Assembly: GCA_903920315.1 (NCBI GenBank)
Contig: CAIXLU010000243.1
Span: 1-15,439 of the forward strand
Length of the DNA stretch: 15,439 nt
Direction of reading: 5' to 3'
From: an uncultured Oscillochloris sp.
Lineage (GTDB): Bacteria; Chloroflexota; Chloroflexia; Chloroflexales; Chloroflexaceae
Both the position numbers and the translations under genes were made by a program. Shown here piece by piece: positions 1 through 15,439 of the stretch (the stretch's first letter is position 1; each line of letters starts with the position of its first letter). The notes below the pieces were generated by a model, which saw only the letters and a program-made list of their open reading frames with translations, was not told where the DNA came from and did not search any database.

Positions 1-54
1 GCGGGATTTTCCCGCGCCCACCCCCTTCCTGTTGCCTCTTCCCTGTTGCCTCGA

Positions 55-1359
55 TTACGGCTTGAAGGGTTTGGCTGTGGGGACGGTCTTCTGATCAATG
101 TCACCGGAGATCGGGTCAACGCCGGTGGTGAGCGTCCCATCAGCCAGGGCCTTCTGGATCTCCACGATCCGGGCCTTCACCGCCGCCGGGATGGCCGCGT
201 CGGTGTTGTGGTAGGGTGCTAGGCCCACGCCATTATCCTTGGCCTCGTAGATCACCGCATGCTTGCCCTTGAATGTGCCCGCCGCAATCGCCTTGATCTG
301 GTCGTAGACGGCCACATCCACCCGCTTGATCGCGCTGGTGAGTACCTTGCCGGCGCCCGATGCCTTGCCGCCCTGGAATGTTGGGCCGGCGTACTCATCC
401 TGATCCACGCCGATCACGTACACGCCCTTGGCTGCCGCCGCCGTGATCCCGCCCGATCCGGTCTGGCCACCGGCACCAAAGATCACGTCTGCCCCGTCAC
501 CGATCATCTGCTCTGCCGTGGAGGCACCGAGCGCAGAATCGATAAACGAAGGTACGTATACGCCCAACGCGTTTACTTCGGGATTGACATACTTCGCGCC
601 ATTCTCATAGCCATTCCGGTACTTCTTCACCGGCGGGATCTCCATACCCGCCACGATCCCAATCGTCCCGCTCTTTGTCACCATCCCGGCCAGTGCCCCG
701 GCCAGGAAACCCGCCTGATCCTCGCGGAACCGCAGGGTGACCAGATTGTCGGTCATGGCCTCGTCCTCGGTGACGGGAACCGCCGTTGCCGCTGACGGAA
801 CGGCTGTTGCCACCGGAGCCTTGGCGGAGTAGGTCTGATCCACCCCGATAAACTTAATCTCCGGGTGCGCGGCGGCTGCAGCCTGGGTCGCATCCGCAAT
901 CAGGAAGCCTACCGTGATGATCACGTCGTACTTCTCATCCACAAAGGTCTGGATGTTCTTCACGTAATCTGCCGATGCCTGGGTCTCGATGAATGTGAAC
1001 TCAAGGCCAAGCTCATCGGCGGCCTTCTTCGCACCCTCGTAGGCAAACTGGTTGAACGTGCCGTCGTTCACCTTACCCGTATCCGTCACCAGCGCAATGC
1101 GTGGCTTTGAGGAATTTGTCCCGGCAGCAGTGGGAGCCGTCGTCGCGGCAGTGGTTGCCTCAGTCGTGGGGGCCGTCGTTGCGGCAGCGGTCGCCGCAGC
1201 AGTTGCGGCAGTGGTCGCCGCAGCGGTCGCCGCAGCGGTCGCCGCAGCGGTCGCCGCCGGAGCGGCGGTGGGTGATGCCACTGGCTTGCCGCCACAGGCG
1301 GCCAACAACGGCACGATCAGCACGAGGAGAGTGAGCAAGCGTACAAGAGTCTTCCGCAT
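55..1359 (-). CDS. BMP-family (Med/PnrA-like) ABC transporter substrate-binding lipoprotein
   Basis: 434 aa. The N-terminus is a signal peptide with lipobox LLAAC-GG, followed by a long Ala/Thr-rich linker. The core carries BMP/PnrA-like motifs (GFLAGALAGM, IGVDQD, GGQTGSG). An RBS AAGGAG lies about 11 nt upstream of the ATG at 1359. Confidence 0.8.
   Translation of the reverse strand: MRKTLVRLLTLLVLIVPLLAACGGKPVASPTAAPAATAAATAAATAAATTAATAAATAAATTAPTTEATTAATTAPTAAGTNSSKPRIALVTDTGKVNDGTFNQFAYEGAKKAADELGLEFTFIETQASADYVKNIQTFVDEKYDVIITVGFLIADATQAAAAAHPEIKFIGVDQTYSAKAPVATAVPSAATAVPVTEDEAMTDNLVTLRFREDQAGFLAGALAGMVTKSGTIGIVAGMEIPPVKKYRNGYENGAKYVNPEVNALGVYVPSFIDSALGASTAEQMIGDGADVIFGAGGQTGSGGITAAAAKGVYVIGVDQDEYAGPTFQGGKASGAGKVLTSAIKRVDVAVYDQIKAIAAGTFKGKHAVIYEAKDNGVGLAPYHNTDAAIPAAVKARIVEIQKALADGTLTTGVDPISGDIDQKTVPTAKPFKP
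1184..1255. repeat. About six tandem copies of a 12-nt unit (GCAGCGGTCGCC and variants) encoding the (TAAA)n linker of the lipoprotein
   Basis: The 12-mer tandem array is directly visible in the sequence. It translates on the minus strand to ATAAATAAATAAATTAATAAAT. Confidence 0.7.
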
Positions 1360-1475
1360 GGTGTAGGTCGCTCCTTAGACTAAAACGGGGTATCCATTCA
1401 TGAAGGGTAGTGAGGCCGAGCGATTATAGCATACCTGTTTGGCTATGGCGTATGCGTGGGAATCTTCAAACGGCT

Positions 1476-1504
1476 TTGACGCACCCTGAGGGGACGGGTA
1501 TAAT
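1476..1504 (+). promoter_or_regulatory. Sigma70-type promoter TTGACG-17bp-TATAAT in the divergent intergenic region upstream of the flippase-like gene
   Basis: A near-consensus -35 (TTGACG, 1476-1481) and a perfect -10 (TATAAT, 1499-1504) are separated by a 17-nt spacer. The element lies about 40 nt upstream of the ATG at 1543. Confidence 0.45.
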
Positions 1505-1542
1505 CGCGGCAGCATCAAACCAACGACAGGCGCTCGTCACCC

Positions 1543-2532
1543 ATGTCACTGAAAACCCTTCAGGGCAAGATTTTTGCCTCGCTCTTGCTCGGTCTCGCCG
1601 TGCTGGTGATGATCGGTCTCGCCAGCGATGTTCGCCAGGTCGGTCACGATCTGGGAGCCTTCCCCTGGGCGCTGCTGCCCGCTATCCTCGGTTTCACTCT
1701 GCTCAATTACATCTTGCGCGGGCTTAAGTGGGACTACTACCTGCGTCGGCTTAACCTGGGCGATGGCGTCGGACACCTCGACAGCGGCCTGATCTTCACT
1801 GCCGGCATGGTGATGGCCGTGACACCGGGGAAGATGGGCGAGGTGTTTAAGTCCTACCTGCTGAAGCGGATCAACGGCACGGCAGCCAGCATCTCGGCAC
1901 CGATTGTCTTGGCGGAGCGGCTCACCGATGGCCTGGCGATGCTCCTGCTGATGGCCTTCGGCCTGACTCTCTACCCACCGGCGCGTATCCTCTTCGCTGT
2001 GCTGCTGATCGCCAGCGTTGCCGGTATTTTGGTCGCTCAGAGCCAGCCACTTTCGCTGGCGATCATCGGTATGATCGAGCGGATGCCCTTTGGACAGCGG
2101 GTTGCCCCGCCGCTGCGCAATATCTACACGAGTACCGCTCAGCTCCTCAACTGGCGCATCCTGCTGATCTCCACCGTCATCAGCGTGATCTCATGGGGCT
2201 GCGAGTGTGTGGCCTTCTACTATGTTCTGACCGGCCTGGGTGTGGTCGGTACACCCCTGCTACTGCTCCAGGCAACCTTCATTTTTGCGGCCAGCACGCT
2301 GTTTGGTCTGGTCTCATTCCTCCCTGGTGGCCTGGGAGCCTCAGAGGTGAGCAGCGTCGGCTTGCTGGTGGCCCTTGTCGGCCAGAGCGCCAGCGCCGCT
2401 ACGACCGCCACGATCATCATTCGCTTTTGCACCCTGTGGTTTGGCGTCCTGCTTGGTGCCATCGCCCTGGCCTGGTTTGGCAGGCGACATACGGATCGCG
2501 GGGATCTTGTGGGTGCCGCAGGTTCCCAATAA
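1543..2532 (+). CDS. Flippase-like domain membrane protein (UPF0104 / lysyl-phosphatidylglycerol synthase TM-region family)
   Basis: 329 aa and polytopic. It has the characteristic loop motif W-YYLRRL...PGKMGEVFKSYLLKR (the P..GE..R..L signature of the UPF0104/LPG_synthase_TM family) followed by several further TM helices. Confidence 0.6.
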   Translation: MSLKTLQGKIFASLLLGLAVLVMIGLASDVRQVGHDLGAFPWALLPAILGFTLLNYILRGLKWDYYLRRLNLGDGVGHLDSGLIFTAGMVMAVTPGKMGEVFKSYLLKRINGTAASISAPIVLAERLTDGLAMLLLMAFGLTLYPPARILFAVLLIASVAGILVAQSQPLSLAIIGMIERMPFGQRVAPPLRNIYTSTAQLLNWRILLISTVISVISWGCECVAFYYVLTGLGVVGTPLLLLQATFIFAASTLFGLVSFLPGGLGASEVSSVGLLVALVGQSASAATTATIIIRFCTLWFGVLLGAIALAWFGRRHTDRGDLVGAAGSQ

Positions 2533-2562
2533 TGGATCATACTGCTGGATGGAGGAATAGCG

Positions 2563-2979
2563 ATGGCTTCAATCTTCACGCGCATTGTGAACGGAGAGAT
2601 CCCGGCAACCAAGATATACGAGGACGCGCAGACACTGGCCTTTCTTGATGTAAACCCGGCCTCTCGCGGACACACCCTGGTGATCTGCAAGCAGGAACTG
2701 CCAACTCTGCTTGATCTGCCGCCCGACCTGCTGGCTGCGGTGGGGAATTCGGTGCAACGGGTGGCCCGTGCGATCATGGACGCCCTGCACCCCGATGGGT
2801 TGAACATTGTGCAGAACAACGGTGTCGCCTCTGGGCAGACGGTGCCGCACTACCATGTGCATATTATCCCGCGCTGGGAGGGTGACCACGCCCTGAGCCA
2901 CTGGAAACCGGGCAGCATCACATCCGAGGAACTGCGCGAGCTTGCTGTGACGATCAGTTCGCGTATAGGGGGGGTGTAG
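2563..2979 (+). CDS. HIT-family (histidine triad) nucleotide hydrolase
   Basis: 138 aa. It carries the histidine triad HYHVHIIPR near the C-terminus and the N-terminal ...IP...YEDA...AFLDV...GH.LV motif typical of the HINT branch. An RBS GGAGGAA lies 7 nt upstream of the ATG. Confidence 0.85.
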   Translation: MASIFTRIVNGEIPATKIYEDAQTLAFLDVNPASRGHTLVICKQELPTLLDLPPDLLAAVGNSVQRVARAIMDALHPDGLNIVQNNGVASGQTVPHYHVHIIPRWEGDHALSHWKPGSITSEELRELAVTISSRIGGV

Positions 2980-3015
2980 GAGTGACTGGCGAATCGCCCC
3001 TACGGCCCAACAGAT

Positions 3016-3465
3016 ATGGATGACGCACAGATCTTCATCACTGTGGCCAGTCAGTCTGGCTACGGTGCCGCAGCGGCGGCGACAGCCTTGGCCTGGGCGC
3101 GAAATCGCCTGAGCGTTGGAGGCGTCGTGCCGTCCCGGCTCTATATTTTTCGTGGGGCCAGCAACAGTAGCGAGGGCACAGGTCAGACACCAAGCTCGCC
3201 TAGCCGCCCGCGTGTACTACTGGCCTTCGCTAGTGCCGACGCAGCCCTAAGCTTTGCTCAGGCCAGCGGGATTGCCGCCGCCCCACGCCTCGCCGCCTTG
3301 AGTATCGAACAGTTGCTCACGGCGCTCATCCAGCGTCCCATGATCACTGCGCTGCTCGTGGCTGATGATGGTGATAGTCCGCATGAGGCGGGCCTGCCCG
3401 CCGGGTTGCGTATTGAACGTGCTGCGCTGCTCGATCAATTGCAGAGTGCAGAGTGCAGATTGTAG
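3016..3465 (+). CDS. Hypothetical protein (149 aa), Ala-rich, with no recognisable domain
   Basis: This is the only long ORF in the region and its GC is typical of coding sequence. The last 8 codons are encoded by the CAGAGT/CAGATTG heptamer array, and the RBS is weak. The ORF is bracketed by a 12-bp direct repeat (see findings). Confidence 0.35.
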   Translation: MDDAQIFITVASQSGYGAAAAATALAWARNRLSVGGVVPSRLYIFRGASNSSEGTGQTPSSPSRPRVLLAFASADAALSFAQASGIAAAPRLAALSIEQLLTALIQRPMITALLVADDGDSPHEAGLPAGLRIERAALLDQLQSAECRL

Positions 3466-3583
3466 ATTGGTCAGCGCATCATCAGTGACGTATTTTGCCG
3501 TAGGGCACGACGTGCTGCCCCTACGGCCATATCGTGTTTGTATCTACAATCTGCGATCATACAATCTGCAATCTACAATCTGG
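3441..3583. repeat. Composite symmetric repeat: a degenerate heptamer array (GCAGAGT GCAGAGT GCAGATT GTAGATT) at 3441-3469, a GC hairpin (CCGTAGGG / CCCTACGG, 8-bp stem) at 3498-3526, and the same heptamer family in inverted orientation with three direct TACAATCTG copies at 3545-3582
   Basis: This was read directly from the sequence. CAGATTGTAGATTG (3456-3469) is the exact reverse complement of CAATCTACAATCTG (3569-3582). TACAATCTG occurs at 3545, 3560 and 3574. Confidence 0.7.
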
Positions 3584-3592
3584 AGGGGTGCT

Positions 3593-4594
3593 ATGGGGAG
3601 CCGGTTCGATGAACTGCGGATCTTTGCGGGGAACGGGAACACCGCCCTTGCCCACGCGATATGCCACCGTATCAATGTGCCGCTTGGCGATGCGACGATT
3701 GTGAAGTTTAGTAATGAGAATATTTTTATTAAGCTGAATGAAAGCGTGCGCGAGAAGGATGTCTTTGTGGTGCAGTCGCTCTCGGCACCAAACCTGAGCG
3801 ACCGAATTATGGAACTGCTGATTATGATGGATGCCTGTAAGCGGGCCTCAGCAGGGCGGATTACGGCGGTCATCCCGTACTACGCCTACGGGCGCACCGA
3901 TAAACGCGATCAGCCGCGTGTGCCGATTACCGCTCGCTTGCTCGCTGATATGATCCAGGTCGCCGGTGCCCATCAGGTACTCACTATTGATCTGCACGCT
4001 GGGCAGATCCAGGGCTTCTTCAACATTCCCACCGACGAACTGACCGCGATGCACCTGCTGGTGCGCTACTTTGCTGACAAGGGGTGGGACGACACCATTG
4101 TTGTTTCGCCTGATGTCGGCTTTGCCAAGCGGGCGCGCAATTTTGCCGAGGCGCTCGGTGCGCCCCTGGCCATCGCCGAAAAGCGCCGTGTGCAGCACTT
4201 TGGCCGTAGCGACGGCGGCAGCCTGACCTCGCCCGAGATCTTGAATTTGATCGGCGATGTGGCTGGCAAGCGCTGCATCCTGGTGGATGACGAGATCGCC
4301 ACCGGCGGATCAATGCTTGAGGTCATCGGACTCCTTGAGCGCGAGGGTGCCCGCGAGATTTACGCGAGCTGTGTTCATGCGGTGTTGGCAGGCAACGCGG
4401 TTGAGCGCTTGCGCAACAGTTCGCTTAAAGAGTTGGTCACCACCGACACCCTGCCCCTGCCAGCGGAGAAGCGCTGGCCCGAACTGACGGTTCTTAGCGT
4501 GAGCCACCTGATCGCCGAGGTGATCCAGCGCATCCACAGCGGCATCTCGGTGGATACAATCTTCCAGCAGCGCAACCACCCGGCGCTGGGGTGA
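3593..4594 (+). CDS. prs: Ribose-phosphate pyrophosphokinase (PRPP synthetase)
   Basis: 333 aa starting at MGSRFDELRIFAGNGN; the long upstream extension in the ORF track is non-coding. It has hallmark Prs motifs: DLHAGQIQGFF, VVSPDVGFAKRARNFAE and the PRPP-binding loop ILVDDEIATGGSM. An RBS GGAGGGG lies 4-10 nt upstream. Confidence 0.92.
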   Translation: MGSRFDELRIFAGNGNTALAHAICHRINVPLGDATIVKFSNENIFIKLNESVREKDVFVVQSLSAPNLSDRIMELLIMMDACKRASAGRITAVIPYYAYGRTDKRDQPRVPITARLLADMIQVAGAHQVLTIDLHAGQIQGFFNIPTDELTAMHLLVRYFADKGWDDTIVVSPDVGFAKRARNFAEALGAPLAIAEKRRVQHFGRSDGGSLTSPEILNLIGDVAGKRCILVDDEIATGGSMLEVIGLLEREGAREIYASCVHAVLAGNAVERLRNSSLKELVTTDTLPLPAEKRWPELTVLSVSHLIAEVIQRIHSGISVDTIFQQRNHPALG

Positions 4595-4601
4595 TGTGAG
4601 A

Positions 4602-4660
4602 ATAGCCGATAGCCGATAGCCGATAGCCGATAGCCGATAGCCGATAGCCGATAGCCGATA
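4602..4660 (+). repeat. Heptamer short tandem repeat (ATAGCCG) x 8.4, immediately after the prs stop codon
   Basis: Eight perfect tandem units plus a partial ATA are visible. The array is preceded by GGTGATGTGAGA, which contains the prs TGA stop codon. Confidence 0.9.
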
Positions 4661-4661
4661 C

Positions 4662-4747
4662 AGCAATCCTCTTGGATCCGTGAAGGAGAGTCAAGGCTTC
4701 AGCCGACTAAAGCCTTGACTCCCCTTCACGGATCCAAGAGGATTGCT
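4662..4747. repeat. Very long hairpin / inverted repeat with two 38-nt arms (1 mismatch) and a 10-nt loop CAGCCGACTA
   Basis: The left arm AGCAATCCTCTTGGATCCGTGAAGGAGAGTCAAGGCTT (4662-4699) is the reverse complement of the right arm (4710-4747) except for one position. No T-tract follows it. Confidence 0.85.
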
Positions 4748-4866
4748 ATACCAACAGGCGGTGATGATTCTTCCCCATGTGTTCGTAATAAGCGTATACT
4801 ATACTCTGATCGTACCCACCGACCCACGTCGTTATTATCGGCTTTTGTCGTTGTGAGGAGAGATCT

Positions 4867-5538
4867 ATGAGCACACAGACCTGCCCAACATGTGATGCCC
4901 CTCTGCCCATAAACGCTCGCTTCTGCTCCAATTGCGGCCACGTCATTGCTCAGACCAATGAGACAGTATCACTCACCACACCGCAACCCCCAGTCCAGAC
5001 TTCGACCCCAAACCCGTATGCGGCGCAACCTCTTGCCCCCCAACAGCCCTACCCGCCACAACCAATGCAGGGACAGCAACCCTACGGTCAGCCGCAGCCC
5101 TACGGTCAGCCACAGCAGCCCTATGGTCAGCCGCAGCCCTACGGTCAGCCACAGCAGCCCTATGGCCAGCCGCAGCCCTATGGCCAGCCGCAGCCCTATG
5201 GCCAGCCGCAGCCCTACGGCCAGCCGCAGCCCTATGGCCAGCCGCAACAAATCAACGTAGTGGTCAATACAACGGCTCAGGCGGTGGCTCAGGGAAGCCC
5301 AATGGGCGTAGTCATTGTGAAGCAGAAGAGTGTTCTTGTCGCATTCCTGCTGACTTTCTTCTTCGGCCCCCTTGGTATCTTCTACGTGAATGTGGTCGGA
5401 GCGATCATCTTCACCCTCGTGACAATTGTCCTGGGCGTGTTAACATACGGTACCTTTAGCTTTTTGGCCTGGATTATCAGTATGATCTGGGGTGTTGTTG
5501 CCGCGTCGAACTACAACAAAAAGATCATCGTGCGCTGA
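4867..5538 (+). CDS. Zinc-ribbon domain / TM2-like domain membrane protein with a Pro-Gln-rich PYGQPQ repeat linker
   Basis: 223 aa. The N-terminus is a [19 protein letters not shown] zinc ribbon (CxxC-x14-CxxC). The central region has about 11 copies of (Q)PYGQPQ. The C-terminus has two TM helices with the TM2/NINE-like signature [22 protein letters not shown]...W. An RBS GAGGAG lies 6 nt upstream of the ATG. Confidence 0.6.
5080..5247. repeat. In-frame tandem 18-nt (sometimes 21-nt) repeat CCCTACGGTCAGCCGCAG (Q), about 9 units, encoding the PYGQPQ repeats
   Basis: This is a visible nucleotide-level tandem repeat with synonymous variation (TAC/TAT, GGT/GGC). Confidence 0.8.
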
Positions 5539-5565
5539 TGTGAAACATAAGCAGTGGTTTTGCAT

Positions 5566-5609
5566 AAAAAACACGATGGAGGAGGCGAAGCCTCCTCCAT
5601 CGTGTTTTT
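5566..5609. terminator. Bidirectional rho-independent terminator between convergent genes
   Basis: AAAAAA + ACACGATGGAGGAGG (stem) + CGAAG (loop) + CCTCCTCCATCGTGT (stem) + TTTTT. The 15-bp perfect stem is flanked by an A-run on one side and a T-run on the other, so it can terminate transcripts from both the + gene ending at 5538 and the - gene ending at 5650. Confidence 0.85.
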
Positions 5610-5649
5610 CGCGCTGACCAGCGGCGACGTTACCCCGTTGCCGAGCGAG

Positions 5650-6336
5650 TTATTTTCGGTGTCCGAGAATATATCCGATCAGGAAGGCGACGATCACCCA
5701 GGGCAACCAGGACTGCTCCTTGAGAAAATTCTCCACCGCACCGCGAGCTACATCAGCCTCGCTGAGTTGCTCGTGGGCGGGGACAATGATCACGCGGCGC
5801 TCGAAGCTGGGAGCGGGAGATAACTCGGGGACGACCACCTCAACCGGCGCGGGAGCAGCGACCGGCTCCATCTCAACGGGGGCGAGTTCGCCGCTGCGGC
5901 GGGATTCGATCAGGTCTGCTAGAGCCTTCAGGTTTTGATTGATCAACGTCTTCGCCGCACCGTCAATCAGGCGCTGCCCCACACTCGCAATCGCGCCGCC
6001 AATATGGGCCTCGCCGCCATAGTCGAGGATTGTTGTGCTGCCCTCATCACGCAGCTTGATGGTGCCAGTACCCTTGAGAAAACCGTTGCTGCCCTTACCC
6101 TCAACATGAATCGCATAGGACTCAGGAGTGACAAGGTTGTCAATCTTCACACGACCGTGGTAGACGCCACGCACCGCATGAAGGGCAATTTTCACAGTCG
6201 TCTCATACTCATCGTCACCGACATGGTCAAGGTGCTGACAGCCTGGAATGGCCCGTGCCATCACCTCAGGGTTCCTAATCGCCGACCAGACTTCCTCACG
6301 GGTGGCCTCGAAGGTGTAGTTTCCTGCAATCCTCAC
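5650..6336 (-). CDS. coxG: CoxG-like SRPBCC-family protein (carbon monoxide dehydrogenase subunit G family) with a C-terminal membrane anchor
   Basis: 229 aa from a GTG start (VRIAGNYTFEATREEVWSAIRNPEVMARAIPGCQHL...), which matches the CoxG family N-terminus. An RBS AAGGAG lies 5 nt upstream of the GTG. The longer ORF extension back to 6531 runs through an AT-rich, low-GC region and is probably not translated. The C-terminus has a hydrophobic helix WLPWVIVAFLIGYILG followed by HRK. Confidence 0.65.
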   Translation of the reverse strand: MRIAGNYTFEATREEVWSAIRNPEVMARAIPGCQHLDHVGDDEYETTVKIALHAVRGVYHGRVKIDNLVTPESYAIHVEGKGSNGFLKGTGTIKLRDEGSTTILDYGGEAHIGGAIASVGQRLIDGAAKTLINQNLKALADLIESRRSGELAPVEMEPVAAPAPVEVVVPELSPAPSFERRVIIVPAHEQLSEADVARGAVENFLKEQSWLPWVIVAFLIGYILGHRK

Positions 6337-6647
6337 AGATGCTCCTTCGTCGGCAACCCGACGACGCACACACAACACGCGAAGCGGCGGTGCAGCATCG
6401 CGTGGTATTGATACACTGGTGAATATAATATTAATACTCTTGGATACAGTCATCGTACCTGAAGCCCATTCCCTTATCAAAATAGGTATGACAGTAAACC
6501 AGGGTTGGTTCCCATGCCTTACCCACATCATCTGCTACAATAGCTCTGTTGAACACGCATCTGCATAGCGGGTGCGGTGTTCCAAATCTAACACCTGAAA
6601 CCTCGTCATAGTGCCTTAATCTTACACGTGGAAGTGAGATAGAGAAC

Positions 6648-7598
6648 ATGATCACAACACTCCAGAAAAAGATCGGTGACCCGCAGCAGTCGGTGACGCT
6701 CTATGGCTCAACCCCGCCCCGTGCGGGCGCATCGGCAGAGGTGTGTTCCAGAGCAGCGGCGCGTCTGGCTGAGCATGTGCGCGATTGTGGACTCGACGGA
6801 CTGGTGGTCTACGATGTGCAAGATGAGCAGGAGCGCACCAGTGAGCCTCGGCCCTTCCCCTATCAACCAACGATTGAGCCACGTATCTACGCCCACCTGC
6901 TTCAGGAACACACGGGATTAGCGACGATTACCTACAAGAGCGTGGGCACTCTGAGCGAGCCGGCGTGGCTCGACTGGCTGAAGCAGGCGCATCAGAGCTA
7001 CGGCCTTGGAATGCTCACCCTTGTGGGCTCTGCTACGCCTAACCCGCCGCCGGATGCGCTCTCCGCTGACCGGGCCATGCAGCTTGCGCGCACGCACGCC
7101 CCACACGTTATGCTGGGCGGTGTGATGATCGCCGAGCGCCATACTCCAGCCTACCGCGAGAGCCAGCGGCTGATCGCCAAGGCTACCCAGGGCAGCCGCT
7201 TTTTTGTCTCACAGGTAGTGTACGATCCTGAGCCGACCGCCCGGTTGCTCACCGATTACGCCCAGGATTGCCGACAGCATGGGGTGACGCCGCAGCGCAT
7301 TATCCTGACCTTCTCGCCCTGCGGGCGACCCGCCACGATGACGTTCCTGAAGTGGCTGGGCGTGGCCATGCCCCCAGCGACTGAGCAGGCTATTCTGGGC
7401 GACTCGGCCCCCTTCACGAAGTCTATCCAGATCTGTTGTGCAAACCTCGCGATTCTGACCGAAGTCGCCGCCGCCGAGAGGATTCCGCTGGGGATTAATA
7501 TCGAGAGCGTTTCGATCCATAAGGATGAACTGGCCGCCTCGATTGAACTAGTTCAGGCTCTGCGTGCGGTGGCAACCCCGCATTCGCATGCGGACTAA
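6648..7598 (+). CDS. Methylenetetrahydrofolate reductase (MetF/MTHFR)-family protein, divergent
   Basis: 316 aa. The segment KATQGSRFFVSQVVYDPEPTARLLTDYAQDCRQHGVTPQRIILTFSPCGRPATMTFLKWLGVAMP follows the MetF pattern GA.RAITQ.FFD......F.......G..V.IIPGI.P......F......V.IP. The N-terminal TIM-barrel-like region is consistent. The family assignment comes from motif recall, not a search. Confidence 0.5.
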   Translation: MITTLQKKIGDPQQSVTLYGSTPPRAGASAEVCSRAAARLAEHVRDCGLDGLVVYDVQDEQERTSEPRPFPYQPTIEPRIYAHLLQEHTGLATITYKSVGTLSEPAWLDWLKQAHQSYGLGMLTLVGSATPNPPPDALSADRAMQLARTHAPHVMLGGVMIAERHTPAYRESQRLIAKATQGSRFFVSQVVYDPEPTARLLTDYAQDCRQHGVTPQRIILTFSPCGRPATMTFLKWLGVAMPPATEQAILGDSAPFTKSIQICCANLAILTEVAAAERIPLGINIESVSIHKDELAASIELVQALRAVATPHSHAD

Positions 7599-7608
7599 CT
7601 AGGCTAAA

Positions 7609-7626
7609 ATAGCCGATAGCCGATAG
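7609..7626 (+). repeat. Heptamer repeat (ATAGCCG) x 2.6, 10 nt after the stop of the MetF-like gene
   Basis: AAAATAGCCGATAGCCGATAGTTGG. Same unit and orientation as the array at 4602. Confidence 0.8.
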
Positions 7627-7794
7627 TTGGGCATCAGCGACCATTTTCATTGGATGTTGTGCGCGAATCGCATGGACATCTGATGCACAAGACAAGATTC
7701 GCAGACGCTTTACAGTTCAGGCCAGAATGTGGCATCCTGATGCGCTCGACCTGAAACCTAAAACCTCGCACCTGAAACCTTGTCCAACAGCACT

Positions 7795-9099
7795 ATGCGC
7801 AACTCCCTGCACATCCAGCTTGAACGACTCGCCAGCGACCGCTGGGCACGGCGCGGCGTCCGTATTCTCATGCGCTCGGTTTGGCTGGGTCTCTCGCTCT
7901 GCTGCCTGATGCTTGGCGTCAGTCTGTTCCTCGATGTGACACCGCCCTGGCAGTGGGTTCTCGCCCTCGGCCTGATCTGCATTGCGGGTGGGGCGATCTT
8001 CATTCTGCGCCCGCGTATGTCGGCGGTTGAGGTGGCTCGGCGGCTCGACCGGCGCTTTCGTCTGAATGAGCAGATCGCCACAGCCCTGGAGATTGACTCC
8101 GCACCGACCGGGATTGAGGTCTATCTACTTGATGAGTCGCGCCGTGCGGTTGGCCAGATCCGCCGCAGCGTTGCGCAGCGCCGGGGCTTTCCCTGGAGCG
8201 AGGCGGCGATGATCCTGGCCCTGCTGATCACCCTCGGCGGTCTGGCGGTTATGCTAGGGATCGGCACAGCCAATCCGCTGGCTGCGCCCGAGCCTCTGCC
8301 CGGATTAGCCACGCCCCAGAGCCTGGCGAATGCCTTCCCGACTGAGCCAGTGAGCACACCGAGCAGTCAGCAACCCAGCCCCGACTCTCGTAATGCCGCC
8401 GCTCCCGGTGCCGGCGACCCTGCGGTGATGCGCGCCCTCGCCAACGCTCTTCGCGACCAGAGCATTACCCGTCAGGCAGCAGAGGCTCTTGATCAGGGCA
8501 ACCTCGCCGGAGCTGCCCAAAACCTGCGCGCTCTCGCCGATCAGGCTGGGCGGATCTCGCAGTCGGCTCGCAACGACCTGGGTACCGCCCTGCGTCAGGC
8601 GGCCAGTCAGGTGCAGGCCAGCAGCCCCGATCTGGCCGACCAACTGCGCACTAGTGCCGCCGGTCTCCAGTCCGGCAATGATTCGCAGGCAGCCCAGTCT
8701 CTTCAGGATCTGGCGGGTGCGGTCGAGAAGATGGGTTCTGGCCAAGCCTCCCAGACGGGGGCGGGTCAACAGCCCGGCAGTACCCAAGATTCGAGCCAGA
8801 CGAACGGCCAGGGACAAGGCGGCGGAGCCGGTAACTCAAGCCTGCCCGGCGGCGAGCAGCGCGAACAACCTGCTGATCGGCTCGGCATTGATGGTGTGCC
8901 GCTTGATCTTAATGCCAAGGGCGATGGCACCGCCGCCACTCAGGGTCAGGCCAACAGCAATGCCGGTGGTACCGGTAATAGCGGCGCCTTCTCGCAGGGT
9001 GAGTCAAACCCCAGCACCGACCCGGTGCTGGCAGCCGACGATCCCCTGCGCATTCCAACGGATCTGCGAGATGTGGTTCAAGACTATTTTTCGCCATAG
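7795..9099 (+). CDS. Hypothetical membrane protein: 3 TM helices followed by a long Ala/Gln/Ser/Gly-rich low-complexity domain
   Basis: 434 aa starting from ATG 7795 (MRNSLHIQ...). The ORF track starts at TTG 7780, which has no RBS. TM helices are at about residues 28-50, 54-75 and 140-165. A periodic A/L/Q-rich coiled-coil-like region is followed by a Q/G/S/N-rich disordered tail ending in DYFSP. The last 29 nt overlap the start of the downstream DUF58 gene. Confidence 0.6.
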   Translation: MRNSLHIQLERLASDRWARRGVRILMRSVWLGLSLCCLMLGVSLFLDVTPPWQWVLALGLICIAGGAIFILRPRMSAVEVARRLDRRFRLNEQIATALEIDSAPTGIEVYLLDESRRAVGQIRRSVAQRRGFPWSEAAMILALLITLGGLAVMLGIGTANPLAAPEPLPGLATPQSLANAFPTEPVSTPSSQQPSPDSRNAAAPGAGDPAVMRALANALRDQSITRQAAEALDQGNLAGAAQNLRALADQAGRISQSARNDLGTALRQAASQVQASSPDLADQLRTSAAGLQSGNDSQAAQSLQDLAGAVEKMGSGQASQTGAGQQPGSTQDSSQTNGQGQGGGAGNSSLPGGEQREQPADRLGIDGVPLDLNAKGDGTAATQGQANSNAGGTGNSGAFSQGESNPSTDPVLAADDPLRIPTDLRDVVQDYFSP

Positions 9100-10042
9100 G
9101 CGTCAACCACCAGCCAATAACCGCCAGCCAACGGGCGGGGGTCGTCGTCCTGAGCGCAACGAAGGGCCGCTCTTCGATGAGGCGTTTTTGCGGCGTGTGG
9201 AGCGTATGAGCCTCCAGGCGCAGCGTACCCTGCGTGGCAATCCATCGAGCGGCGAACACCCGAGCCGTCACCAAATTCCGACCAGCATTTTTAGCGACCA
9301 CCGGCCCTACACCAGTGGCGACGATCTGCGTTATGTTGACTGGAATGCCTACGCTCGCCAGAACCATGTGTTGCTACGACTCGGTGAAGCCGAGCAGGAT
9401 GTGAATGTTCATCTCCTGCTTGACGCCTCGCGAAGTATGGCGGCGAGCAACTCGCAGCGCATGCGCCGCGCCCAGCAGCTTGTCGGTACACTTGGCTACC
9501 TGGCCCTGGCCCACAGTGATCGCCTCCAAATTGTGCCTTTTGGCTCAGCCGCCATGCCCGCCTTCGGGCCAACCCAGGGCAAGGCGCGCCTGATCGAGAT
9601 GCTGCGCTTTGTTGAGAACCTCACGCCACAGCCCGCAACCAGCCTGACCGCCGTGATCCGGCAGCACGCCGTGAGCCATCCCCGGGGTGGCCTGATGGTG
9701 ATCTGCTCTGACCTGCTTGCCCCCGATGGTCTGGCTGAGGCACTGGCGACCCTTGCCCCGCCCCGCTGGCAGGTTCTGGTGCTGCACATGCTCAGCCCCG
9801 ACGATCTCCAGCCCAGCACAGAGGGGCCGCTTGAACTAGAGGACAGTGAGACCGGCCAGCGCATGGAGATCATCCTGGACGACGAGACCCTGGCGGCATA
9901 CCGCAAGAGCGTGGCCCACTGGCGCGAGGGATTGGCCAAAGCCTGTACCCGCCGGGGTGCCACCTACGCCCCGATCATGAGCAACTGGCCCCTGGAACAG
10001 CAGGTGGTGCCCTACCTACGCTCCCGGCGGCTGTTGCATTAG
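9071..10042 (+). CDS. DUF58 family protein (vWA-fold, usually the partner of a MoxR AAA+ ATPase)
   Basis: 323 aa from ATG 9071. The ORF-track N-terminus from 8489 is a shadow frame inside the upstream gene. The DUF58 signature is present: LRRVERMSLQAQRTLRG...HPSRHQIPTSIFSDHRPYTSGDDLRYVDWNAYAR. A vWA MIDAS-like DASRS motif is also present (LLLDASRSMAAS). Confidence 0.75.
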   Translation: MWFKTIFRHRRQPPANNRQPTGGGRRPERNEGPLFDEAFLRRVERMSLQAQRTLRGNPSSGEHPSRHQIPTSIFSDHRPYTSGDDLRYVDWNAYARQNHVLLRLGEAEQDVNVHLLLDASRSMAASNSQRMRRAQQLVGTLGYLALAHSDRLQIVPFGSAAMPAFGPTQGKARLIEMLRFVENLTPQPATSLTAVIRQHAVSHPRGGLMVICSDLLAPDGLAEALATLAPPRWQVLVLHMLSPDDLQPSTEGPLELEDSETGQRMEIILDDETLAAYRKSVAHWREGLAKACTRRGATYAPIMSNWPLEQQVVPYLRSRRLLH

Positions 10043-10055
10043 GGCGGACGTGAAG

Positions 10056-10083
10056 ATAGCCGATAGCCGATAGCCGATAGCCG
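10056..10083 (+). repeat. Heptamer repeat (ATAGCCG) x 4, 13 nt after the DUF58 stop
   Basis: GACGTGAAG + 4 perfect units. It is flanked on both sides by CGGACGT (10045-10051 and 10082-10088). Confidence 0.85.
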
Positions 10084-10107
10084 GACGTAACGGCCTCGAT
10101 CCTCTGG

Positions 10108-10136
10108 TTGACAGCCCGGCAGGCGCGTGCTATTGT
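10108..10136 (+). promoter_or_regulatory. Sigma70-type promoter TTGACA-17bp-TATTGT upstream of proC
   Basis: A perfect -35 TTGACA (10108-10113) and a -10-like TATTGT (10131-10136) are separated by a 17-nt spacer. The element lies about 40 nt upstream of the proC ATG. Confidence 0.4.
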
Positions 10137-10173
10137 CGCCACAGTGAGGCGTATTTACACACTTCTAGGATAT

Positions 10174-10992
10174 ATGCTTAAAGATCTGAAAATCTCTGTG
10201 ATCGGGGCGGGGGCGATGGGCGAGGCGATCATCGGCGGTTTGCTGCGGCAGGAATTGGTGTCGGCTGAGCAGGTGCTGGCGACCGATCTGCAGGAAGATC
10301 ACCTGCGCAAACTACAGGCTCGCTACGGGATACAGACGGGCTTGGATAATGTCGCTGCGATCCAGTGGGGCCAGATCGTCATTTTCGCCGTGAAGCCCCA
10401 GCATCTGAAGCAGGTACTCCAGCCCCTGCGCGGTCTGCTACGCAGCGACGTTTTGGTGATCTCGATTGTGGCGGGAGTGACGATCAGCACATTCGCCACC
10501 ATTCTCGATCACCCGGCGGTGGTGCGGAGCATGCCCAACACACCCGCGATGATCGGCGAGGGGATGACGGTCTGGACGACTAGCGAGGCGGTTGGCGAGC
10601 AACAGCGCGGCTGGGCGCGCACGATACTCAGCGCCCTGGGCCACGAGCTGTTTGTGGATAACGAAAACTACCTCGACATGTCCACCGCGCTGAACGGATC
10701 GGGTCCAGCCTACTTCTTCCTGATGATGGAGGCCATGATTGATGCCGGCGTCCACATGGGACTCTCGCGGCCCATCGCCCAGGAATTGGTACTCCAGACG
10801 ATGCTCGGATCGGTGCACTACGCCCAGCAGAGCGGTATGCACCCGGCCCAACTGCGCAACGCCGTCACATCACCCGGCGGAACCACCAGCGCCGCCCTGA
10901 GCGAACTAGAGCGCGGCGGTATCCGTACGGTTCTCTCCGATGCGATCTGGGCCGCGTATCGGCGGTCAGTAGAACTGGGGAAGCAGGGATAG
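10174..10992 (+). CDS. proC: Pyrroline-5-carboxylate reductase
   Basis: 272 aa from MLKDLKISVIGAGAMGEAIIGGLL, a Rossmann GxGxxG fold. It has ProC motifs IFAVKPQ, MPNTPA and GGTTSAALSELE. The upstream part of the ORF-track ORF from 10108 overlaps the promoter and is not coding. Confidence 0.88.
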   Translation: MLKDLKISVIGAGAMGEAIIGGLLRQELVSAEQVLATDLQEDHLRKLQARYGIQTGLDNVAAIQWGQIVIFAVKPQHLKQVLQPLRGLLRSDVLVISIVAGVTISTFATILDHPAVVRSMPNTPAMIGEGMTVWTTSEAVGEQQRGWARTILSALGHELFVDNENYLDMSTALNGSGPAYFFLMMEAMIDAGVHMGLSRPIAQELVLQTMLGSVHYAQQSGMHPAQLRNAVTSPGGTTSAALSELERGGIRTVLSDAIWAAYRRSVELGKQG

Positions 10993-11044
10993 CCCTCATG
11001 TCGGGCTGTCGGTTGGTCTTACCTACGCAAGGAAGGAGATTCCG

Positions 11045-11566
11045 ATGCTCCGCTATCGTATCGTCGTTCTTATTGCTCTCGCCATGCTGGCGATCCTCGC
11101 CCTTCCCACAGGAATCTTGGCTCAGGGAACGACAAGTATCAATGGGGTCGTCTTCCTCAGCGATGCGGCGACACTCCCCAGCAGCGCCGTGATCACGATT
11201 CAGCTCGCCGATGTCACGCAGGCGGGTGTGCCGGCAAAGGTAATCACAGAGCGGGTGTTCAGTACGGGCGGGGCGCAGTCGCCATTTTCATTCAGCCTAC
11301 CCTACAGCCCGCAGCAGATCAGCCAAAATAGCCGCTATATCATCCAGGGGAATATTCGGGTGGCCGGACAGACCCTCTACCGGACAATGGCACCCCATAC
11401 GGTGAGCGCCTCTGGGACCCCATCCAACAACCTCCAGGTGACGATGGTGAAGGTTGCCAATAGCAGTCTGCCCCAGTCGAGCGCGGGGACGCAGCCCCTG
11501 CTGCTGGCCGGTACACTGCTGCTGGCCGCATTCGCTGTTATGGCGCTGAGGCGGCGGTTGATGTGA
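11045..11566 (+). CDS. Secreted/cell-surface hypothetical protein with an N-terminal signal peptide and a C-terminal hydrophobic anchor plus basic tail
   Basis: 173 aa. An RBS AAGGAG lies 5 nt upstream. The signal peptide is MLRYRIVVLIALAMLAILALPTGILAQG. The C-terminus is ...SLPQSSAGTQPLLLAGTLLLAAFAVMALRRRLM. This is the tripartite layout (motif, TM helix, basic tail) typical of C-terminal sorting signals. Confidence 0.6.
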   Translation: MLRYRIVVLIALAMLAILALPTGILAQGTTSINGVVFLSDAATLPSSAVITIQLADVTQAGVPAKVITERVFSTGGAQSPFSFSLPYSPQQISQNSRYIIQGNIRVAGQTLYRTMAPHTVSASGTPSNNLQVTMVKVANSSLPQSSAGTQPLLLAGTLLLAAFAVMALRRRLM

Positions 11567-11568
11567 CA

Positions 11569-11582
11569 ATAGCCGATAGCCG
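11569..11582 (+). repeat. Heptamer repeat (ATAGCCG) x 2, 2 nt after the stop codon, between convergent genes
   Basis: TTGATGTGA(stop)CA ATAGCCG ATAGCCG GG. The array lies in a 26-nt gap between the + gene ending at 11566 and the - gene ending at 11593. Confidence 0.75.
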
Positions 11583-11592
11583 GGTATTGTGT

Positions 11593-13572
11593 TCAGCTCC
11601 CCTCTTTCATAAGCCCCTTACGGATCTGGGCGCGCAGGGCGTCGGCCTCGCTACTGGCACCCGTACTCGCTCCGATGCTGCTGTTGGCCGAGACCGCCTC
11701 CATGCGCTCGGAGAGCAGCATCGCCATAAGCCCTTCCATGAGGCTGCCGCTCCCGCCGCCGTTGCTGCCGCCACCGCCAACCACCATACGCGGAACCACA
11801 TCCACGCCCGACTGCTGGATCGCTTCGGCAAAGCGGCTCATTACCTGCTGCGTCACCTGGAACTGGGGGCCACCGTAGGCGCGCACTTTCTCGTCAATGG
11901 CCATGGCCTCGGCGATACCCAGGCGAGCGATCTTCTCGGCCTCGGCCTCGGCTAAGGCGCGGATCTGGGCGGCCTGCTGGAGCGCCCGCTGGTACTCGGC
12001 CTTGCCTTGGTTGCTCTGCACGGTGATGCTTAGCTCCGACTCGGTAAGCAACGTCTGTTGGCGTGCACGCGATTCAGCCTCGCGTAGCTCGCGCTCCTTC
12101 ACCGACGCTCGCTCCTGACGCCCGTAGGTCTCGATCTGCTCCTCGGCAATCTGCCGTGCGCGCAGTTGGGTCAGGATGTCTTCGATCTTGGTGTCACCCT
12201 TACTTGATGTCGGCGTACCGATTAGCACCTCTTCCAGTTCGAGGTTGTAGACCGCGAACTTCTCACGCATCTGCTCGCCCGCCAGCGATTGGATGGTACT
12301 GCGATCCTGGAGCAACTGGATAATCGTGCGGGTCTGGCCGATATTCTTGAAGTAGGCAGCCACCATGGGGTCGAGGGTCTGCTCAACCAGCCGCTTCACG
12401 TCGCCAAAGCGCTGCACCACCAAGGGCGCTTTGCGGTAGTCAATATGGATCACCACCGAGAGCGGCAGAGATGGCTCGAAGGCATCGCGGGTGATCAGGG
12501 CAATCTCCGAGAGGTTCTCGTCGAGTCGGTGGGCACCAATCTCACCCCGAGTCCACTTCAAGATAATATTGGTCGTCGGCACCATGATCATCTTGCCGGC
12601 GTAGGTGTTGAAGGCGTATTTACCTGGCAGCATCGGGGCACTCCAGACACCTCGGCTACCCTGGCGCACCATCTCGCCGTGGGTATAATCCTCACCCGAA
12701 ATATCAGCGCTGGTGTCCCCGGTGTACGAGACGACGACGCCCACACTGCCAACCTCAATGGTCGTCTTGGGGATTGTTTCAATGGTGGCAAAGAGCCGGT
12801 TGATGTAGTAGGTACCCTCGGTAAGCACCTGGAGCTGGCGTCCGCGCTGACCACCCGCACGCAGGAAGGCGTCGGGGTCCTGGAAGTTGTTATGGTACGT
12901 TATCGGCTCTCCCGGATTATCGCCAACGGTCTGACAGATAATCTCACCCTGCGAGAGGGATGGGCCGTCGTGGACGGTGACGATGCCTACGAGGTCATCG
13001 GTACCCTTGATCACCATGGGGAAGAATCCCGCACGCTCGCTGATGATCACGGCCATATGCTTAATGATCTCGTCGTCCTCGCGGCTAAGGGGTAGAGAGA
13101 AGACCCGCTCCTCAGTGATGACCACGAACTGCATAAGGTTGATCGCGTAGGTACCCTCGCGTAGGACGAGGCGCTGGGGGCCGCGCTGGCCTCCGGCCCT
13201 GAGGAATGCCGCCGCATCCTGGAAATCAACGTCGGGGATCGTCTCGGCCAAGGTCTGGGTGGGACTGAGGGCGCGACCGTCGCGGGCGAAGATATAGCCG
13301 ATCTTGCCCTGAGGGATCGTCACCAAGGGCAGCATATGGATGGTGTACTGGAATGGTGTGATCAGATGGATGCCACCACGCAACACCTGGGGCTGGTAGC
13401 CAGCCTCGCCGCCAAGGGCGATCAGGCCCGAGCGCAACGAACCGCGCCCACCGAAGCGCTTTTCAACAACGCCAATACGGTTGTTCGGGATGATGCGAAC
13501 CCAGGAGAAGAACACGATCAGCATGACAACTACGATAATGGTGATGACCACAAGCGAAATGATCCCAGCCAT
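11593..13572 (-). CDS. Flotillin-like SPFH/band-7 family membrane protein (YqiK/FloT-like), long form
   Basis: 659 aa. It has an N-terminal TM helix (IISLVVITIIVVVMLIVFFSW), a flotillin-type N-terminal region (RIGVVEKRFGG...), a C-terminal E/A/R/Q-rich coiled coil and a Gly/Ser tail. An internal duplicated segment is present (D.AAFLRAGGQRG.Q..VL.EGTY.IN occurs twice). An RBS GTGAGGA lies about 7 nt upstream. Confidence 0.8.
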   Translation of the reverse strand: MAGIISLVVITIIVVVMLIVFFSWVRIIPNNRIGVVEKRFGGRGSLRSGLIALGGEAGYQPQVLRGGIHLITPFQYTIHMLPLVTIPQGKIGYIFARDGRALSPTQTLAETIPDVDFQDAAAFLRAGGQRGPQRLVLREGTYAINLMQFVVITEERVFSLPLSREDDEIIKHMAVIISERAGFFPMVIKGTDDLVGIVTVHDGPSLSQGEIICQTVGDNPGEPITYHNNFQDPDAFLRAGGQRGRQLQVLTEGTYYINRLFATIETIPKTTIEVGSVGVVVSYTGDTSADISGEDYTHGEMVRQGSRGVWSAPMLPGKYAFNTYAGKMIMVPTTNIILKWTRGEIGAHRLDENLSEIALITRDAFEPSLPLSVVIHIDYRKAPLVVQRFGDVKRLVEQTLDPMVAAYFKNIGQTRTIIQLLQDRSTIQSLAGEQMREKFAVYNLELEEVLIGTPTSSKGDTKIEDILTQLRARQIAEEQIETYGRQERASVKERELREAESRARQQTLLTESELSITVQSNQGKAEYQRALQQAAQIRALAEAEAEKIARLGIAEAMAIDEKVRAYGGPQFQVTQQVMSRFAEAIQQSGVDVVPRMVVGGGGSNGGGSGSLMEGLMAMLLSERMEAVSANSSIGASTGASSEADALRAQIRKGLMKEGS

Positions 13573-13650
13573 AATGTAATCCTCACTTCCGCAAATATGC
13601 AGAGCGTCGGTGCGACACTCAAGGGTAATACGTAGAGGATAGGAGGGAGG

Positions 13651-14766: not shown

Positions 14767-14791
14767 GAATGCTACCGTCCTGTTTATAAGG

Positions 14792-14809
14792 GGATTGATG
14801 CATCAATCC
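14792..14809. promoter_or_regulatory. 18-bp perfect palindrome GGATTGATGCATCAATCC in the leader/promoter of the STAS-flotillin operon
   Basis: The sequence is exactly self-complementary. It lies 26 nt upstream of the ATG at 14766 on the minus strand, at the edge of a locally lower-GC segment. Confidence 0.5.
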
Positions 14810-14948
14810 TCTCCATGAATATGGATGACCACGACCTTGTTCTATGCATCCTATCACTGATCGGCAACATCGTACTCTTGCTCCTCCCGTGCGCTAGCCC
14901 GCAAAATATCAGCGCCCGCCTTGTGACATCCACACGAGCGTGCGATAA

Positions 14949-15398: not shown

Positions 15399-15439
15399 AA
15401 ATAGGCAGGTGTCGGGGAGGGGCGCGTCGCGACGCGCCC

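Follow-up and report, generated by a model that had tools for sequence, protein, structure and literature searches.

In the 15,439-nucleotide stretch analyzed here (contig CAIXLU010000243.1 of an uncultured Oscillochloris sp., assembly GCA_903920315.1, positions 1 to 15,439; hereafter the window), a small open reading frame (ORF) of 149 amino acids, ORF149, is located directly upstream of prs, the gene for ribose-phosphate pyrophosphokinase, and is accompanied by a 12-bp direct repeat, a GC hairpin and two heptamer arrays in opposite orientations. The account that we consider probable has three parts: ORF149 is a conserved gene; the ORF149-prs spacer contains a heptamer satellite together with hairpins that resemble repetitive extragenic palindromic (REP) elements; and the stem that the two arrays are predicted to form in the messenger RNA is modulatory and dispensable. 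The window was compared with related loci, designated by L-numbers; L011 belongs to Oscillochloris sp. ZM17-4, L012 to Ca. O. fontis, and L013 to O. trichoides DG6, a named isolate with a scaffold-level genome. The positions of the features are summarized in Table 1.

ORF149 and the direct repeat that flanks it

Eighteen database homologues of ORF149 were found (54-95% identity), all of them from Oscillochloris/Chloroflexales and none with a Pfam domain. A genome scan gave 25 species-level loci, with identity down to 36%, and a metagenome scan 18 further loci. In nearly all of the loci whose contig reached far enough prs was located immediately 3' of ORF149, and the common gene order was LPG-synthase-TM, HIT, p325 (a 325-aa gene), ORF149 and prs. 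Profile searches of Pfam, NCBIfam and PDB with ORF149 gave no match (best PDB E = 0.51), and an AlphaFold2 model built from a 19-sequence alignment was too poor for a fold search (mean predicted local distance difference test, pLDDT, 47.8). Judged by sequence comparison, ORF149 is a genuine, vertically inherited conserved gene, specific to Chloroflexales.

An earlier reading of the window, made from the letters alone (the sequence-only reading), had drawn attention to the 12-mer GCCCCTACGGCC, and its two exact copies were recovered (2996-3007 and 3517-3528), with no third copy in the window even at one mismatch. The first copy lies 9 nt 5' of the ORF149 ATG and the second about 50 nt 3' of the stop, an arrangement which would fit a mobile cassette (2996-3528) inserted with a 12-bp target-site duplication. 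A single exact 12-mer direct repeat, taken alone, is unremarkable. Dispersed exact repeats of at least 12 nt numbered 20 in the window, where first-order Markov simulations predicted 10 ± 2.9, and the same 800 nt that hold the GCCCCTACGGCC pair contained a second pair of exact 12-mers. The repeat is nevertheless regarded as real despite this chance level, because in the comparative data both copies appear as arms of one hairpin family.

In genomes that carry p325, the last codons and stop of this gene (...CTG CCG TAG) form the left arm of a hairpin, and the right arm precedes the ORF149 start. The p325-ORF149 hairpin of L011 is perfect (GCCGTAGGGACGCAGCG/CGCTGCGTCCCTACGGC, then CCAATACATTCATGATG), and those of L003 and L006 are less perfect. 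Positions 2996-3015 of the window (CGCCCCTACGGCCCAACAGATATG) aligned with the right arm and leader of this hairpin. The p325 gene was lost in the lineage of the window alone (window, L001, L002, L007, L032 and L033), being kept in the 78%-identical L008 and in the outgroups. Since the aligned right arm was kept and p325 was deleted together with the left arm, the first copy is an orphan arm; in the 92%-identical L001 it reads CACCTCTACGGCC, with two positions changed. Thus, the 12-bp direct repeat consists of two right arms of a dispersed family of REP-like hairpins, CCGTAGGG...CCCTACGG. As for p325 itself, its product has a Pro/Ala-rich N-terminus and a conserved C-terminal half with no family match (window 2980-3015 compared with L008 508-1536 and L003 1956-3000), and its deletion in the window lineage also altered the C-terminus of HIT.

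A target-site duplication was therefore rejected, both repeat copies being right arms of homologous hairpins and the first being orthologous to a hairpin downstream of a different gene, p325, in the relatives. ORF149 was syntenic and vertically conserved in more than 40 loci, among which no empty site was found; its GC content was continuous with, and equal to, that of the flanking DNA; no mobility gene was present; and about 10 exact 12-mer repeats per window are expected by chance. All this makes the cassette extremely improbable. The sequence-only reading had proposed that either ORF149 ends inside a repeat element or the whole unit of about 530 bp is an inserted cassette: the former held, and the latter was refuted, since the same gene with a conserved protein stands upstream of prs in the relatives, the identical place and conserved protein being those of an ordinary gene. 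Annotators should be warned that direct repeats flanking small ORFs in these genomes are usually arms of REP-like hairpins rather than insertion scars.

The GC hairpin between the two arrays, which had been noted to have its right arm in the second repeat copy, was confirmed; it folds at -14.3 kcal/mol (3498-3526) and appears in the centroid of the folded spacer ensemble. Hairpins of the CCGTAGGG...CCCTACGG type were also found elsewhere (L009 1447, L011 17958, L019 13344, L020 4406 and L023 4178), the family having at least six independent sites in 433 kb of related loci, and the CCGTAGGG hairpin was present in the ORF149-prs spacer of the window, L001, L003 and L015. The GTAGGG/CCCTAC core columns were invariant, and some compensatory changes were observed higher in the stem. 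No intrinsic terminator was called on the + strand between 3400 and 3600, the tail after the hairpin (CATATCGTGTTTG) having no U tract.

Heptamer arrays and the coding tail of ORF149

The layout of the two arrays was as first described: a period-7 array at 3438-3469 and its reverse complement at 3542-3582 (3438-3469 and 3542-3581 according to Tandem Repeats Finder), a 14-mer, CAGATTGTAGATTG (3456-3469), which is the exact reverse complement of CAATCTACAATCTG (3569-3582), and three copies of TACAATCTG on the + strand (3545, 3560 and 3574). The forward array does encode the last eight or so codons and the TAG stop of ORF149, and CAGATTG/CAATCTG is indeed a second heptamer family apart from ATAGCCG, with further copies in related genomes. 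The period-7 head-to-tail register of the arrays was common to all clade members, and the junction of CAATCTG with GAGG was kept in 7 of the 10 clade lineages (CTATCTG with GAGG in L003).

CAGATTG/CAATCTG was the commonest period-7 unit in the loci, with arrays at about 20 places, unrelated sites included (L011 7155, 7301, 12592 and 12688; L016 3861; L020 273; and L021 6854, just after the prs stop). The window itself contained one CAGATTG site and three ATAGCCG sites. L032, which comes from another sample, was about 99.3% identical to the window over 6.4 kb, and showed length differences at four places only: one additional CAATCTA at 3569, one additional ATAGCCG at 4602, and two coding repeats. 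Because of these one-unit gains between near-identical strains, the heptamer arrays are slippage-prone satellites, with a copy number that changes in 7-nt steps between strains.

Both coding repeats are in frame. One of them (1124-1257, 12/24/36-nt units), in a Bmp-like lipoprotein gene, differed by 12 nt between the window and L032, and the other (5073-5246, 18/39-nt QPYGQP-type units), in a gene for a zinc-ribbon protein, by 18 nt; the latter includes CCCTACGGCC by coincidence. The (ATAGCCG)n arrays at 4602-4660, 7609-7626 and 10055-10083 start 7, 10 and 12 nt, respectively, after + strand ORF stops; another was located at L016 2449-2470, and the (ATAGCCG)n arrays had no reverse-complement partner. 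Read cyclically, ATAGCCG gives TAG in all three frames, and AGTGCTG, AATGCTG and ACCTGAA give TGA in all three.

In the Oscillochloris clade the forward array supplies the last seven residues and the stop codon of ORF149. The tail QIADCRL is (CAGATTG)3 read through all three frames and then TAG; the window version is QSAECRL. IADC(R/S)L was kept in 9 of the 10 distinct lineages of the clade, and synonymous changes that break the heptamer were found in L006 (AGG CTA), L012 (AGG), L013 (AGG and TGT) and L015 (ATC, GAC and TGT). The ratio of nonsynonymous to synonymous differences per site (pN/pS) was 0.13 for the last nine codons vs. 0.33 for the body of the gene (nine sequences). This low ratio, together with the retention of IADC(R/S)L despite the heptamer-breaking synonymous changes, places the tail peptide under purifying selection. 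The pS values were 0.30 for the tail vs. 0.61 for the body, which is suggestive only, as they come from about 5 synonymous sites and non-independent pairs; the lower tail value could reflect nucleotide-level constraint or array homogenization. The locus clearly exemplifies how a satellite array can be taken into conserved coding sequence, stop codon included.

The ORF149-prs junction differed between clades. In the deepest Chloroflexaceae (L023, L025, L027, L028, L030 and L046) ORF149 and prs overlap or lie no more than 10 nt apart (-17 to +10 nt). In the middle clade the spacer measures 74-126 nt (longer where other palindromes are inserted) and contains a TGnTACAATAG box, and ORF149 ends in ...LLAGVTP or ...LIDLLR before the stop. 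In the Oscillochloris clade ORF149 is about six codons longer and ends in DQLQIADCRL, with a spacer of 23-364 nt. L020 and L040, sisters of the Oscillochloris clade, carry a degenerate CAGATTT/TAGATTG array just after the ORF149 stop, and this post-stop array suggests that the array came first and ORF149 was later extended into it.

Between subclades of the Oscillochloris clade the spacer content was unrelated: a different hairpin followed by T5 in L010 and L006, two other hairpins in L013, two extra forward arrays in L011, and, in the closest relatives of the window (L001, L002, L007 and L033), an insertion of about 100 nt within the reverse array, which is the same element as window 4661-4752. 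Two classes of small dispersed repeats, the heptamer satellite and the REP-like hairpin, have colonized the spacer, and the junction is a repeat-accumulating hotspot in several clades. It forms a well-resolved evolutionary series, from overlap to a short one-array spacer, and then to inverted arrays around a spacer that collects elements. The spacer of a group of metagenome-assembled genomes (L022, L031, L042, L044 and L047-L049; up to 781 nt) was filled by multiple GGGGAAACCCGGTTTCCCC palindromes interleaved with GGGAGGG...CCCTCCC hairpins.

Predicted pairing of the arrays and its bearing on prs

The LPG-synthase-TM, HIT, ORF149 and prs genes of the window are co-directional, with gaps of 30-127 nt. 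These four genes likely constitute an operon that starts at the promoter match at 1476-1504, because a near-consensus promoter lies upstream of the LPG-synthase-TM gene and none was called in the ORF149-prs spacer.

The TACAAT-containing repeats had been proposed as -10 elements of a prs promoter or as sites for a regulator, and a related possibility is that a Csp- or S1-like protein binds the heptamers as single-stranded RNA beside the start codon, in the way suggested for the TAACTGA repeats of Beggiatoaceae. TACAAT matches 5 of the 6 positions of the -10 consensus, and its three copies lie 19-48 nt from the prs ATG. Inspection by eye gave a weak TTGTAT-N15/16-TAC(A/G)AT arrangement for the window and three other lineages (L001, L008 and L015), a TGnTACAATAG box is present upstream of prs in sister clades, and regulatory roles have been reported or proposed for heptamer repeats near start codons (PMC4679880; bioRxiv 10.1101/2022.06.06.494920). 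However, no sigma-70-type promoter, with -35 and -10 hexamers 16-18 nt apart, was called between 3400 and 3600 in a consensus scan, and the units are not conserved across species: TACAAT is replaced by TGCAAT or CTATCT, or missing, in other species, and in L010, L013 and L003 such units, or a single unit adjoining the Shine-Dalgarno (SD) sequence, leave no room for a promoter and leader. The same heptamer is moreover found in both orientations and after stop codons, and has no known binding protein. The promoter proposal was not borne out, and promoter, operator or protein-binding roles for the heptamers are improbable. An extended -10-like box, TG(G/C)TACAATAG, was conserved 60-230 nt upstream of prs in sister clades (L014, L016, L017, L021, L029, L031, L035, L037-L039, L041 and L049); behind it comes a leader, likewise conserved and measuring about 170 nt in L029, L031 and L049, which may be a structured 5' untranslated region.

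In the mRNA of the putative operon the two arrays would pair over about 25 bp, closing the variable spacer into a stem and putting the ORF149 stop codon beside the prs ribosome-binding site (RBS). A ribosome ending ORF149 would have to melt the 5' arm. The stem would make prs initiation, and possibly mRNA processing or stability, depend on translation upstream, to a degree adjustable by slippage in array length.

The strength of pairing was calculated for each lineage, with z-scores from mononucleotide shuffles of the 3' arm. The arm-arm duplex of the window was predicted at -36.4 kcal/mol (z = -5.3), which puts the inverted arrays well outside what chance would give; within the clade, 9 of the 10 lineages had values between -25 and -56 kcal/mol, with z from -2 to -11, and the outgroups had values of about 0. 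Predicted pairing was strong in the window, L008, L011 (-55.7 kcal/mol) and L006, moderate in L001, L003 and L013, weak in L010, and absent in L015 and every outgroup. In the partition function a nucleotide of the 5' arm pairs with the 3' arm at a probability of 0.79 (about 25 pairs), the prs SD is mostly paired, and the folded 160-nt spacer had a z-score of -2.4. Searched against Rfam, the whole window yielded nothing at the gathering threshold, and 2950-3650 nothing at E ≤ 1. In-silico masking of the last 12 codons of ORF149 increased the predicted RBS accessibility in the window (+0.16), L013 (+0.24), and also in L012, L032 and L010.

Inverted pairs, that is, an array followed by its reverse complement, occurred at six independent sites, with four different units. 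Three of the six span the upstream stop codon to the SD of the next gene on the same strand, or end no more than 5 nt from it: the ORF149-prs junction of the window and its clade; the coxL-coxM junction of L011, where 12 forward units and 4 reverse ones enclose an 8-nt loop; and p325-ORF149 in L016, L037 and L038, where the TAG stop lies within the first AGTGCTG unit and the last ACTCAGC unit adjoins the AGGA of the next gene. The fourth pair (L011, upstream of coxS) lies between co-directional genes and extends from about 85 nt past the upstream stop to 11 nt short of the SD; the fifth lies within a divergent promoter region, and the sixth at L010 17956/18138. All three independent CAGATTG pairs were ordered CAGATTG...CAATCTG, a number too small to carry meaning. 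In a stop-to-stop frame test, stop-free arrays in GC-rich DNA merged into open frames from neighboring genes, and the contexts of the arrays were read by eye. The 20-kb L011 locus contained 17 heptamer arrays; in its minus-strand cox-like cluster a (CAATCTG)12/(CAGATTG)4 hairpin (12573-12719) fills the coxL-coxM spacer, and an (AATGCTG)4/(CATTCAG)4 hairpin was located upstream of coxS (15634-15733).

These data bear on a more ambitious reading, in which the arrays are a selected long-range RNA device, either a stop-to-start bridge restoring the translational coupling of ORF149 and prs, for which deeper lineages use gene overlap, or an RNase III processing site that would determine how stable the two cistrons are relative to each other, with array length acting as a tunable rheostat. 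The stop-array...anti-array-SD layout at independent intercistronic sites, from different heptamers, is in line with such a device, as are the retention of both arrays in most of the clade despite a gene-body synonymous divergence of about 0.6, the halved pS of the tail, the SD predicted as mostly paired in free mRNA, and the stop/start overlap of ORF149 and prs in the deepest relatives. The clade mean of RBS accessibility also rose on masking, with no gain in the outgroups, but this effect was inconsistent between loci and is not counted as support. On the other side, arrays that fill a short intercistronic spacer adjoin stop and SD anyway, copy number is polymorphic, and the pS contrast depends on about 5 synonymous sites. 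A selected device is considered unlikely, because pairing is absent or decayed in two species (lost in L012, decayed in L015), with no compensatory changes in the units.

Several observations also count against the account that we favor. Both arrays are decayed in L015 (duplex z = -0.8), L012 has no reverse array and a gap of 23 nt, and about 1.5 reverse units are left in L010 and L013. The unit variants are uncompensated, CAGAGTG in the window and CTATCTG in L003 each producing a mismatch in every unit. Masking of the ORF149 end gave no rise in L011 or L001 (about 0 in the outgroups). The claim of dispersed families comes from related genomes, the genome of the window having been seen over 15 kb, and what is said of the operon, of the stem and of an effect on prs is predicted. 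Accepting these points, we judge the effect of the stem as probably modulatory and dispensable rather than that of an essential device; the stem is more likely a tolerated, at most modulatory, by-product of satellite expansion than a selected device.

The broadest proposal, in which self-expanding inverted heptamer arrays would serve filamentous Chloroflexales as a general and evolvable stop-to-SD device between cistrons, is doubtful. If true, 7-nt slippage would tune cistron ratios within populations, via translational coupling or RNase III processing, and a function would be at hand for the heptamer repeats common to filamentous cyanobacteria, Beggiatoaceae and Chloroflexales. The locus is a clean system for the translational-coupling idea, with O. 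trichoides DG6 (L013) as a natural test organism.

Neighboring elements and comparison with known repeat systems

Table 1. Features of the window around ORF149 and prs (positions in the window; strand as + or, where none applies, a point).
Feature	Position	Strand	Details
Sigma-70-like promoter match TTGACG-17-TATAAT, 11/12	1476-1504	+	Consensus scan; best match, upstream of the LPG-synthase-TM gene
HIT-family gene, upstream neighbor of ORF149	2563-2979	+	Pfam PF01230, E = 6e-29
First 12-bp copy, orphan right arm of an ancestral REP-like hairpin	2996-3007	+	Alignment with L011 (GCCGTAGGGACGCAGCGCGCTGCGTCCCTACGGCCCAAT...), L003 and L006
ORF149 (149 aa)	3016-3465	+	TAG stop 3463-3465, inside the forward heptamer array
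Forward heptamer array, ATTGCAG x 4.6	3438-3469	+	Units CAGAGTG, CAGAGTG, CAGATTG, TAGATTG; predicted 5' arm of the stem
REP-like GC hairpin, GCCGTAGGGCA / TGCCCCTACGGC	3497-3527	+	Arms 3497-3507 and 3516-3527; second 12-bp copy on the right arm
Reverse-complement heptamer array, CAATCTG/CAATCTA units	3542-3582	+	Adjoins the prs SD; predicted 3' arm of the stem
prs SD, GGAGGGG	3584-3590	+	Before the prs ATG at 3593
prs (ribose-phosphate pyrophosphokinase)	3593-4594	+	Pfam PF13793, PF14572, PF00156
(ATAGCCG)8.4 array	4602-4660	+	7 nt after the prs stop; one extra unit in L032
Near-perfect palindrome, about 90 nt, MITE-like	4661-4752	.	-72.7 kcal/mol, z = -14.8

The palindrome downstream of prs resembles a miniature inverted-repeat transposable element (MITE) and has the sequence AATCCTCTTGGA..GTGAAG..GAGTCAAGGCTTCAGCCG.CTAAAGCCTTGACTC... 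Copies were found at window 4661-4752, L001 3550-3613 (also in L002, L007 and L033) and L020 170-237. All three independent copies lie beside or inside tandem arrays (after (ATAGCCG)8, in a CAATCTA/G array, and between 9-mer and CAATCTG arrays, respectively), which hints at targeting of arrays or at generation together with them. Another element of about 90 nt (window 7700-7790, with a 12-mer also at 6592), GCTTTACAGTT.CAG...GATGCGCTCGACCTGAAACCTnAAACCT.GCACCTGAAACCTTGTC, contains ACCTGAAACCT repeats and is common to the window and the distant relative L040 (about 1180-1260), where it directly follows the ORF149 stop. It had no Rfam match, and could be a small mobile element or a small RNA.

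Filamentous cyanobacteria have been known since 1990 to carry tandem heptanucleotide repeats close to gene boundaries, and Beggiatoaceae were added later; the function of these repeats is still unexplained. The families of STRR (short tandemly repeated repetitive) sequences were reportedly defined by Mazel et al. in 1990. In Anabaena/Nostoc, STRRs of 7 bp fold into a hairpin in the region between hupS and hupL, and a role in transcript stability or translational coupling was proposed for such repeats (PMC2670836). The arrays described here are similarly tandem repeats of a 7-nt unit in the intergenic DNA of a filamentous phototroph, recurring at several sites in related genomes, with predicted hairpins between the cistrons of a likely operon. 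They differ in their units (CAGATTG, ATAGCCG, AGTGCTG and AATGCTG), in a loop enlarged by other inserted elements, and in a forward array which is conserved coding sequence with a stop; their hosts, all relatives included, are Chloroflexales/Oscillochloris rather than heterocystous cyanobacteria, and the arrays are thus of the same kind but outside STRR1-3.

In Beggiatoaceae, cyanobacteria and Bacteroidetes, TAACTGA heptamer repeats stand immediately before start codons, show 7-nt indels between strains, and were proposed to act in post-transcriptional regulation (PMC4679880, in which Chloroflexi are not mentioned). Common to them and to the arrays described here are the intergenic position, ends a few nt from a start codon or SD, 7-nt strain indels, filamentous bacterial hosts and a suspected post-transcriptional role. 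The TAACTGA repeats, however, are direct repeats mostly without a canonical SD, and the role put forward for them is that of single-stranded protein-binding sites, whereas the window has an inverted pair and retains a strong SD. Reporter data from Nostoc suggested that heptamer repeats affect the expression of recF and recO (bioRxiv 10.1101/2022.06.06.494920).

In Chloroflexus aurantiacus a census listed 22 scattered (GATAGRA)n satellites, with no positional analysis (PMC6749651), and the literature searched on repeats of Oscillochloris and on heptanucleotide repeats of Chloroflexi yielded nothing beyond this census. The host of these satellites belongs to the same order (Chloroflexales), their period is also 7 nt and they are scattered through the genome, and their GATAG core resembles the ATAGCCG units of the window and the CAGATAG units of L003. 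Their unit sequence is different, and the census gives no gene position, inverted pairing or coding use.

Two further systems invite comparison. The CCGTAGGG...CCCTACGG hairpins resemble the enterobacterial REP/bacterial interspersed mosaic elements (BIME) in being short, GC-rich, imperfect palindromes in intercistronic or post-stop positions, with a conserved stem core and a variable loop, but have no sequence relationship to REP. In phage MS2, long-range RNA pairing between coat and replicase couples the translation of adjacent cistrons. The stem proposed here would share with it a predicted helix that joins the 3' end of one ORF to the RBS region of the next and is opened by the translating ribosome, a resemblance of mechanism only; the helix here consists of repeats and is conserved in only part of the species.

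With this locus the heptamer-repeat puzzle reaches one more phylum of filamentous phototrophs (Chloroflexales, relatives of Oscillochloris). Known classes of small repeats account for most of the locus; less usual are the inverted stop-to-SD layout around an expanded loop and the recruitment of an array as coding sequence.

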